NCBI RefSeq assembly: GCF_056712565.1
Contig: NZ_CM160072.1
Direction: 5' to 3' (one strand)
Length of the DNA: 64,000 nt
The position numbers and the translations under genes were made by a program. The notes under the pieces were generated by a model that saw nothing but the letters and a program-made list of their open reading frames with translations, had not been told where the DNA came from and ran no database searches. This document shows positions 55,659 through 55,704 of this stretch, piece after piece. Every line of letters begins with the position of its first letter. Position 1 is the stretch's first letter.

Positions 55659-55704
55659 TCCCTTAATTGTGCATGCTGTTGCGACTATGCACAATTAAGG
55701 GATA
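55659..55704. repeat. perfect 17-bp inverted repeat with 12-bp spacer in the panE-yajQ divergent intergenic region
   Basis: ATCCCTTAATTGTGCAT-GCTGTTGCGACT-ATGCACAATTAAGGGAT; no flanking U-tract. Confidence 0.6.

Follow-up and report, generated by a model that had tools for sequence, protein, structure and literature searches.

A perfect palindrome in the panE-yajQ spacer of Escherichia coli is a published RNase III hairpin with promoter elements in its arms

Introduction

RNase III cleaves double-stranded RNA according to rules that, as given by Altuvia (2018), include a staggered double cut, 2-nt 3' overhangs and paired G-C between the two cuts. One of its sites in E. coli was reported by Gordon, Cameron & Pfleger (mBio 2017; PMC5371410), who compared the RNA-seq coverage of an rnc deletion mutant with that of the wild type after alignment to NC_000913.3, and who entered a site called 'Intergenic (panE-yajQ)' at position 444573. 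At this position, 96 reads were found in the rnc deletion mutant versus 2-3 in the wild type, i.e., ratios of 48 and 32, values that rank low in the 2017 list. According to the same report, a hairpin can form on both strands, purified RNase III cut T7 transcripts of both strands in vitro, cuts were mapped at several sites by 5' RACE, and the half-life of yajQ mRNA was ~6 min in the wild type versus ~3 min in the mutant lacking rnc (PMC5371410). A later review placed yajQ among the positively regulated targets of RNase III, with the mechanism unknown.

The 2017 libraries were prepared by the TruSeq method, which we took as unstranded, and the T7 starts of the in vitro templates were placed arbitrarily within the neighbouring genes (plus strand, 55476; minus strand, 55827, in the coordinates used below; PMC5371410). 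Therefore, the strand that is cleaved in vivo and the native substrate are not defined by the 2017 data. In what that report presents on this site, the native transcript and strand, the transcription start site (TSS) and promoter hexamers within the arms, and the species distribution were left out.

Here we describe the same locus in a 64-kb stretch of E. coli DNA, referred to as the window. An initial annotation of the window, which was made from the letters alone, had noted a perfect inverted repeat between the divergent panE and yajQ genes. It considered an intrinsic terminator unlikely and suggested either an operator for a dimeric regulator or a structured leader element.

Results

A long perfect palindrome separates panE and yajQ

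The window is chromosomal DNA carrying thiI, yajL, panE, yajQ and yajR. The queried region is 100% identical to that of the type strain ATCC 11775, and it was found in 5424 of the 5426 complete E. coli genomes. The K-12 MG1655 spacer is identical to that of the window except for one SNP at 55716, outside the palindrome. Window positions were obtained by subtracting 388,901 from NC_000913.3 coordinates, which places the palindrome at NC_000913.3 444558-444605, and by subtracting 388,125 from the U00096.2 coordinates of the Cappable-seq data.

Between the ATG codons of the two divergent genes lies an intergenic spacer of 167 bp, in which two 18-bp arms, 100% complementary to each other, flank a 12-nt loop (Table 1). 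The initial annotation had correctly recognized the perfect symmetry and the 12-bp spacer, but it counted 17 bp in each arm and began the repeat at 55659, off by 1-2 nt. Its estimates of ~45 bp to panE and ~80 bp to yajQ agree with the measured distances, which are 42 nt from the panE ATG (55614, minus strand) to the left arm and 77 nt from the right arm to the yajQ ATG (55782). When perfect inverted repeats with a loop of at most 30 nt were collected from the 64-kb window, the palindrome was the longest, followed by repeats of 13, 12 and 11 bp. The longest repeat in each of 20 block-shuffles of the window was 9-12 bp, showing that the 18-bp arms are well beyond chance. A search of the window for the half-site, allowing up to three mismatches, found the two arms only (expectation 0.04).

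Table 1. Features of the panE-yajQ locus in window coordinates
Feature	Position	Strand	Sequence or elements	Basis
panE (2-dehydropantoate 2-reductase)	54703-55614	minus		
yajQ (nucleotide-binding protein YajQ)	55782-56273	plus		
Left arm	55657-55674	no strand	TATCCCTTAATTGTGCAT	repeat sequence; RNase III read-ratio peak (55672) inside arm
Loop	55675-55686	no strand	GCTGTTGCGACT	12 nt; identical in E. albertii
Right arm	55687-55704	no strand	ATGCACAATTAAGGGATA	repeat sequence
Lineage-specific segment (palindrome and short flanks)	55648-55710	no strand	~63 nt	replaces ~9 nt of short-spacer species
yajQ promoter P3, inside panE coding region	-10 at 55503-55508, TSS 55515	plus	-10 TACAAT	Cappable-seq, PWM
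yajQ promoter P2, within palindrome	55667-55702	plus	-35 TTGTGC 55667-55672 (left arm), 17-nt spacer, -10 CACAAT 55690-55695 (right arm), TSS 55702	Cappable-seq, PWM
yajQ promoter P1, proximal	-10 at 55744-55749, TSS 55757	plus	-10 TATTAT	Cappable-seq, alignment, PWM
Predicted mirror-image panE promoter	55659-55694	minus	-35 TTGTGC 55694-55689, -10 CACAAT 55671-55666, TSS near 55659, 45-nt leader (all predicted)	top minus-strand PWM match, symmetry
Candidate decayed panE -10	55711-55716	minus	GGTGCG (GGTGCA in K-12 and most strains)	alignments, Salmonella PWM

As the initial annotation had expected, the palindrome was rejected as an intrinsic terminator. Its stem is AT-rich, neither a T-run after the stem nor a terminator-like site was found on either strand, and both genes diverge from it. 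A consensus scan for promoters and terminators found nothing on either strand at its thresholds, and a permissive -35/-10 position-weight matrix (PWM) was required to recover promoters. An Rfam search of positions 55000-56400, judged by E-value, returned only chance-level matches, none of them over the palindrome.

Other features of the window were also recorded. The second longest perfect inverted repeat (13 bp, 5676-5705; TAATGCCCGTCAA ggat TTGACGGGCATTA) has a 4-nt loop. A 12-bp perfect repeat with a 4-nt loop (54108-54135; AACGTCGCATCT ggtc AGATGCGACGTT) lies between the convergent ends of thiI and yajL and is probably their shared terminator. On the minus strand, the beginning of yajL covers the last ~40 nt of panE (54703-54746; 38 nt by the K-12 annotated yajL start), which is consistent with a panE-yajL operon.

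The palindrome is the published RNase III hairpin

Position 444573 of NC_000913.3 corresponds to window position 55672, within the left arm. Because the K-12 sequence is identical and the published RNase III site falls in this arm, the structured leader is already known: the palindrome is the RNase III hairpin of the yajQ leader described in 2017, at the same locus and with the same sequence, and the element itself is neither different nor of a new kind. As far as the published description of a hairpin in the yajQ 5' UTR goes (PMC5371410), the structured leader element proposed in the initial annotation was thus confirmed.

RNA folding of the 63-nt element gave -31.3 kcal/mol for the plus strand (z = -6.5) and -30.2 kcal/mol for the minus strand (z = -7.8), and on both strands none of 200 shuffles folded as well. 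The predicted stem consists of the 18 perfect pairs, 2 inner G-C pairs, which arise because the first GC of the loop pairs with an internal GC, and 3-4 flanking pairs. When the 366-nt P3 leader sequence was folded, the mean pair probability of the 18 stem pairs was 0.98. Accordingly, the RNA offers what an RNase III substrate requires, namely an intramolecular stem of ~20 bp, or about two helical turns.

An 8-bp inverted repeat, ACCCGCAA (55627-55634) and TTGCGGGT (55737-55744), brackets the spacer and closes the minimum-free-energy fold. A related 8-bp pair occurs in other enterics. Among ~45 enteric loci, its variable pair appears as C-G, U-A, U-G or C-A, with ~9 mismatches. No covariation was seen, and the outer repeat was therefore rejected as a conserved structure.

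One of three mapped yajQ starts reads through the hairpin

Published plus-strand TSSs determined by Cappable-seq (Ettwiller 2016, U00096.2 coordinates) were mapped onto the window, giving three main starts upstream of yajQ. P3 (U00096.2 443640) has a relative read score (RRS) of 35.9 and an enrichment of 5.2. P2 (U00096.2 443827) has an RRS of 43.2, comparable to that of the main promoter, and a log2 enrichment of 3.9 (~15-fold for triphosphate), while P1 (U00096.2 443882) has an RRS of 63.7 and starts 8 nt after its TATTAT box. Log2 enrichments of 3.9-5.2 mark 55515, 55702 and 55757 as primary rather than processed 5' ends. The three main mapped starts were also three of the top five plus-strand PWM matches, and the predicted start for P2 was exactly the mapped one. 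The -10 region of P1, GGTATTATGC, is invariant across 17 Enterobacteriaceae.

P3 is the sole mapped plus-strand start from which the whole hairpin is included in the transcript, with a leader of 267 nt. P2 initiates near the end of the right arm, and neither its transcript nor that of P1 contains the hairpin. We infer from this arrangement that the hairpin-bearing RNA comes from P3. Transcription of the stem in vivo is indicated by the upstream start at 55515 together with the 96 rnc-mutant reads at 55672, which are reads of unassigned strand.

P3 (55503-55515) lies within panE codons ~33-37, and its leader is antisense to the panE ribosome-binding site, the panE leader and the first ~33 codons (55515-55614). 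Antisense coupling of panE and yajQ through the P3 transcript is possible. RNase III is known to act on overlapping divergent 5' ends as a class of substrate, and the in vivo target might be a duplex between the P3 leader and panE mRNA (panE 5' UTR plus ~33 codons), with the palindrome being incidental. However, the read-ratio peak lies in the palindrome, outside the panE coding overlap, and the high pairing probability of the stem speaks for folding within one molecule. In addition, in the published assays purified enzyme cut single T7 transcripts of either strand without a partner RNA (PMC5371410). We consider the duplex an improbable target.

Two ways in which cleavage might act on yajQ were rejected. 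Release of the yajQ ribosome-binding site was assessed from its pairing with the complement of the panE site, which acts as an anti-Shine-Dalgarno sequence. The predicted pairing of the yajQ site was 0.86-0.94 in all four transcript forms, and because it was the same in all of them, release by cleavage is unsupported. A hairpin downstream of the palindrome (55706-55720), considered as a 5' stabilizer, folded no better than shuffles (z = -0.8 and -1.4).

The palindrome is nearly invariant in E. coli and patchy among enterics

Spacers were gathered from 80 genomes via YajQ and from further species via PanE. The 48-nt palindrome was 100% identical in 5384 of the 5412 matching E. coli genomes, whereas the adjacent 48 nt matched the window perfectly in only 203 genomes, and not even a 28-nt exact word was present there in more than 3,000. 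E. albertii has an identical palindrome, with no changes in 55576-55705 and six in 55706-55741. Among 19 metagenome contigs, seven right-flank haplotypes were found, and the only change in the palindrome was one C>T variant in the loop. The constrained block, 55576-55705, is wider than the stem and includes the panE leader.

Together with its short flanks, the palindrome forms a lineage-specific segment, which alignment delimits as 63-70 nt between GGTGTT and a plus-strand box, AGTATA or ATTATA. The C. freundii group (werkmanii, youngae, braakii and others) carries a homologous, imperfect hairpin at the same position, with 14 of the 18 pairs and a fold of -17.8 kcal/mol (z = -3.6). The element was not present in Salmonella, whose spacer is 125 bp long, in C. 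amalonaticus and C. farmeri, where it is 113 bp, or in Enterobacter, Kluyvera, Leclercia and others. The same panE-yajQ gene pair is kept without it in Salmonella, Enterobacter and C. amalonaticus, and since it is missing in most enterics that carry these genes, the element is dispensable. Covariation of the stem between Escherichia and Citrobacter was weak, with 2-3 compensatory pairs, 4 pairs broken in Citrobacter and shuffles not clearly exceeded, in a comparison that is too shallow for covariation to be informative.

E. coli genomes carried one palindrome locus each, with no copies on plasmids or elsewhere in the genome, and a mobile origin was rejected because no plasmid copy or second E. 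coli copy was found. Two complete E. coli genomes have IS3-family elements in the panE-yajQ spacer. In strain 13TMH22 (NZ_CP019256.1), an IS1203-like insertion at ~55666 breaks the left arm and constitutes a natural knock-out of the hairpin; in NZ_LT883142.1, an IS3-family insertion lies at ~55728.

The patchy distribution might suggest a neutral relic, either an insertion scar or a quasi-palindrome perfected by template switching, that has no selected function. The segment does look like an insertion of ~63-70 nt that Escherichia shares with the C. freundii group and not with Salmonella or C. amalonaticus/farmeri; it is imperfect in Citrobacter, and the IS3-family insertions, one of them in the left arm, occur in the same spacer. 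A relic would nevertheless not be expected to stay near-invariant in ~5,400 genomes beside a polymorphic spacer and identical in E. albertii, to have measured biochemical and mRNA-stability effects, or to provide the hexamers for a mapped TSS. We give this explanation hardly any credence.

The palindrome DNA is a yajQ promoter and is predicted to be a panE promoter

The palindrome DNA is the yajQ P2 promoter (Table 1). Owing to the exact symmetry of the arms, both hexamers also occur on the minus strand, where they constitute the top PWM match. Among candidates for the panE promoter, this mirror image ranks first, as a prediction only, and the palindrome DNA is probably a panE promoter as well. 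The supplements of Adams 2021 and Yan 2018 contained no strand-specific TSS or cleavage entry for panE, and Romero 2014 contained nothing relevant.

Comparison with relatives bears on both promoters. At the P2 positions, Citrobacter has a stronger counterpart, TTGTTC-18-TACAAT, which is the top plus-strand PWM match in that spacer. The arm positions that never vary between Escherichia and Citrobacter, ATTGT.C and ACAAT, are the promoter hexamers, and part of the constraint may therefore act on DNA. Immediately right of the segment, the box at 55711-55716 reads, on the plus strand, AGTATA in Citrobacter and Enterobacter and ATTATA in Salmonella, i.e., TATACT and TATAAT on the minus strand. The TATAAT-type box scores as a panE -10 in Salmonella by PWM, and Citrobacter keeps the box to the right of its palindrome. 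The E. coli GGTGCG appears from these alignments to be a relic of the ancestral panE -10. Having apparently lost this element, E. coli would need another panE promoter, and the pattern fits a replacement in which panE transcription in Escherichia passed to the promoter carried by the palindrome.

These observations raise the question of whether the palindrome acts as DNA, i.e., as two overlapping, back-to-back sigma-70 promoters, with the hairpin and its cleavage being a by-product of read-through. On each strand, TTGTGC of one arm would serve as the -35 and CACAAT of the other arm, 17 bp away, as the -10, with outputs rightward to yajQ (P2, 55702) and leftward to panE (near 55659). The triphosphate-enriched start at 55702, the PWM results on both strands, the Citrobacter counterpart, the invariant arm columns, and the loss in E. 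coli of a panE -10 that Salmonella, Enterobacter and Citrobacter keep all argue for such a promoter pair. Yet the hexamers fit the consensus at just 7 of 12 positions, and the minus-strand start is a prediction. Furthermore, promoters do not need 18 symmetric pairs, and neither the conservation of arm positions 1-9 nor the perfect symmetry across the E. coli-E. albertii split is explained by them. We rate this reading at slightly below an even chance; it can coexist with RNase III processing of the leader.

The half-site lacks the copies and geometry of an operator

The initial annotation had also suggested that a dimeric regulator binds the palindrome. In its broader form, this hypothesis holds that a dimeric or higher-order regulator occupies the arms and controls panE and/or yajQ, and NtrC is the only named candidate. 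The site does lie between divergent genes and overlaps promoter elements. A genomic SELEX study in vitro placed an NtrC peak of 41% intensity in the spacer at 443,846, which is ~55721 if this is a U00096.2 coordinate. TTGTGCA and TGCACAA occur in the arms, and TGGTGCA occurs at 55710-55716 in K-12; these all resemble NtrC half-sites (consensus TGCACCAnnnTGGTGCA). However, the SELEX evidence is from in vitro work only, the window strain reads TGGTGCG, and neither the order nor the spacing (14-15 nt, not 3) of the NtrC-like half-sites is right.

Dimer operators have short, symmetric half-sites of ~5-8 bp, with centres approximately one to two helical turns apart. The palindrome does not resemble them, as its arms are 18 bp long with centres 30 bp apart. 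The search for further half-site copies that the initial annotation had suggested found, for the exact sequence, none in E. coli beyond the palindrome locus. A metagenome-wide scan with the 18-mer returned 20 copies of the palindrome locus and 11 unrelated low-GC matches, about the estimated chance number. Hence no regulon was found with the 18-mer in the window (up to three mismatches), in E. coli genomes or in metagenomes, although degenerate copies are possible. Finally, most relatives carrying these genes do not have the element, and in Citrobacter 4 of the 18 arm positions break the symmetry. An operator function is very unlikely, and on this point the initial annotation was not supported. 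Its overall interpretation held for the leader and against the terminator, but it overlooked the promoter hexamers in the arms and the mapped TSS.

Discussion

Altogether, RNase III processing of a P3-derived yajQ leader at the palindrome hairpin is the most likely explanation of this element. According to this model, the palindrome would be transcribed within the long yajQ leader that starts at P3 (55515). The leader RNA would fold into the 18 perfect pairs, the two inner G-C pairs and a few flanking pairs, and RNase III would recognize and cut this stem. The cut would strip off the upstream part of the leader, which is antisense to panE, leaving a processed yajQ mRNA that may be about twice as stable. 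Transcripts from P2 (55702) and P1 (55757), which carry no hairpin, would escape the RNase III step. The model is supported by the triphosphate 5' end at 55515, located upstream of the hairpin and behind a TACAAT box, by the near-invariant 48-mer and by the Citrobacter homologue. The low rank of the site in the 2017 list, the weak covariation, the patchy distribution and the conservation extending beyond the stem count against it. We infer both the route from cleavage to yajQ mRNA stabilization and the doubling of the palindrome as a promoter pair.

The RNA-level and DNA-level roles could also be combined. A further hypothesis, which we advance only tentatively and regard as rather unlikely, is that the palindrome is a dual-use element gained by a small insertion. 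As DNA, it would provide two mutually exclusive back-to-back promoters, and in Escherichia its leftward promoter would have taken the place of the ancestral panE promoter, leaving the latter to decay. At the RNA level, it would be a tag of promoter origin that is trimmed by RNase III; only yajQ transcripts started inside panE would be tagged, and RNase III would yield the stable form while removing the panE-antisense segment. If this were true, the expression of panE and yajQ would be coupled.

The main function of the hairpin was published in 2017, and our additions are modest: the assignment of the hairpin to P3, the location of P2 within the arms, the predicted mirror-image panE promoter, the species distribution, and the near-invariance of a single-copy element. 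Nevertheless, the locus is a clean natural case in which a single short sequence serves as a promoter in DNA and as an RNase III site in RNA, and it illustrates promoter turnover among close enteric species. When perfect palindromes are found in divergent promoter regions, lists of RNase III targets and TSS maps should be consulted before operators are proposed.

REP/BIME, ERIC/IRU and MITE elements are, like the palindrome, small, intergenic palindromic segments that are present or absent between related species. The palindrome differs in being single-copy in every E. coli genome and not found on plasmids; it is also AT-rich, unlike REP sequences, and has no Rfam match. Bidirectional promoters that arise from DNA symmetry reportedly have overlapping -10 elements and starts ~18 bp apart. 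In the palindrome, each -10 instead lies over the -35 of the opposite promoter, and 43 bp separate the observed start from the predicted one, although, as in the class described by Warman et al., a symmetric sequence may function as a promoter on each strand. At the adhE leader, the ahpC and pflB sites and the phage T7 R1.1-type signals, cutting by RNase III increases expression or stability; the yajQ hairpin shares with them an untranslated, intramolecular stem of about two turns and a processed product that is more stable. The yajQ case differs from adhE-like release of a ribosome-binding site in that no difference in the yajQ site is predicted upon cleavage and in that only one of three yajQ promoters feeds the hairpin. 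The pnp and rnc leaders also contain a 5' UTR stem-loop that is cut by RNase III, but the outcome is opposite: pnp and rnc mRNAs are degraded faster once cleaved, whereas the decay of yajQ mRNA is slower.
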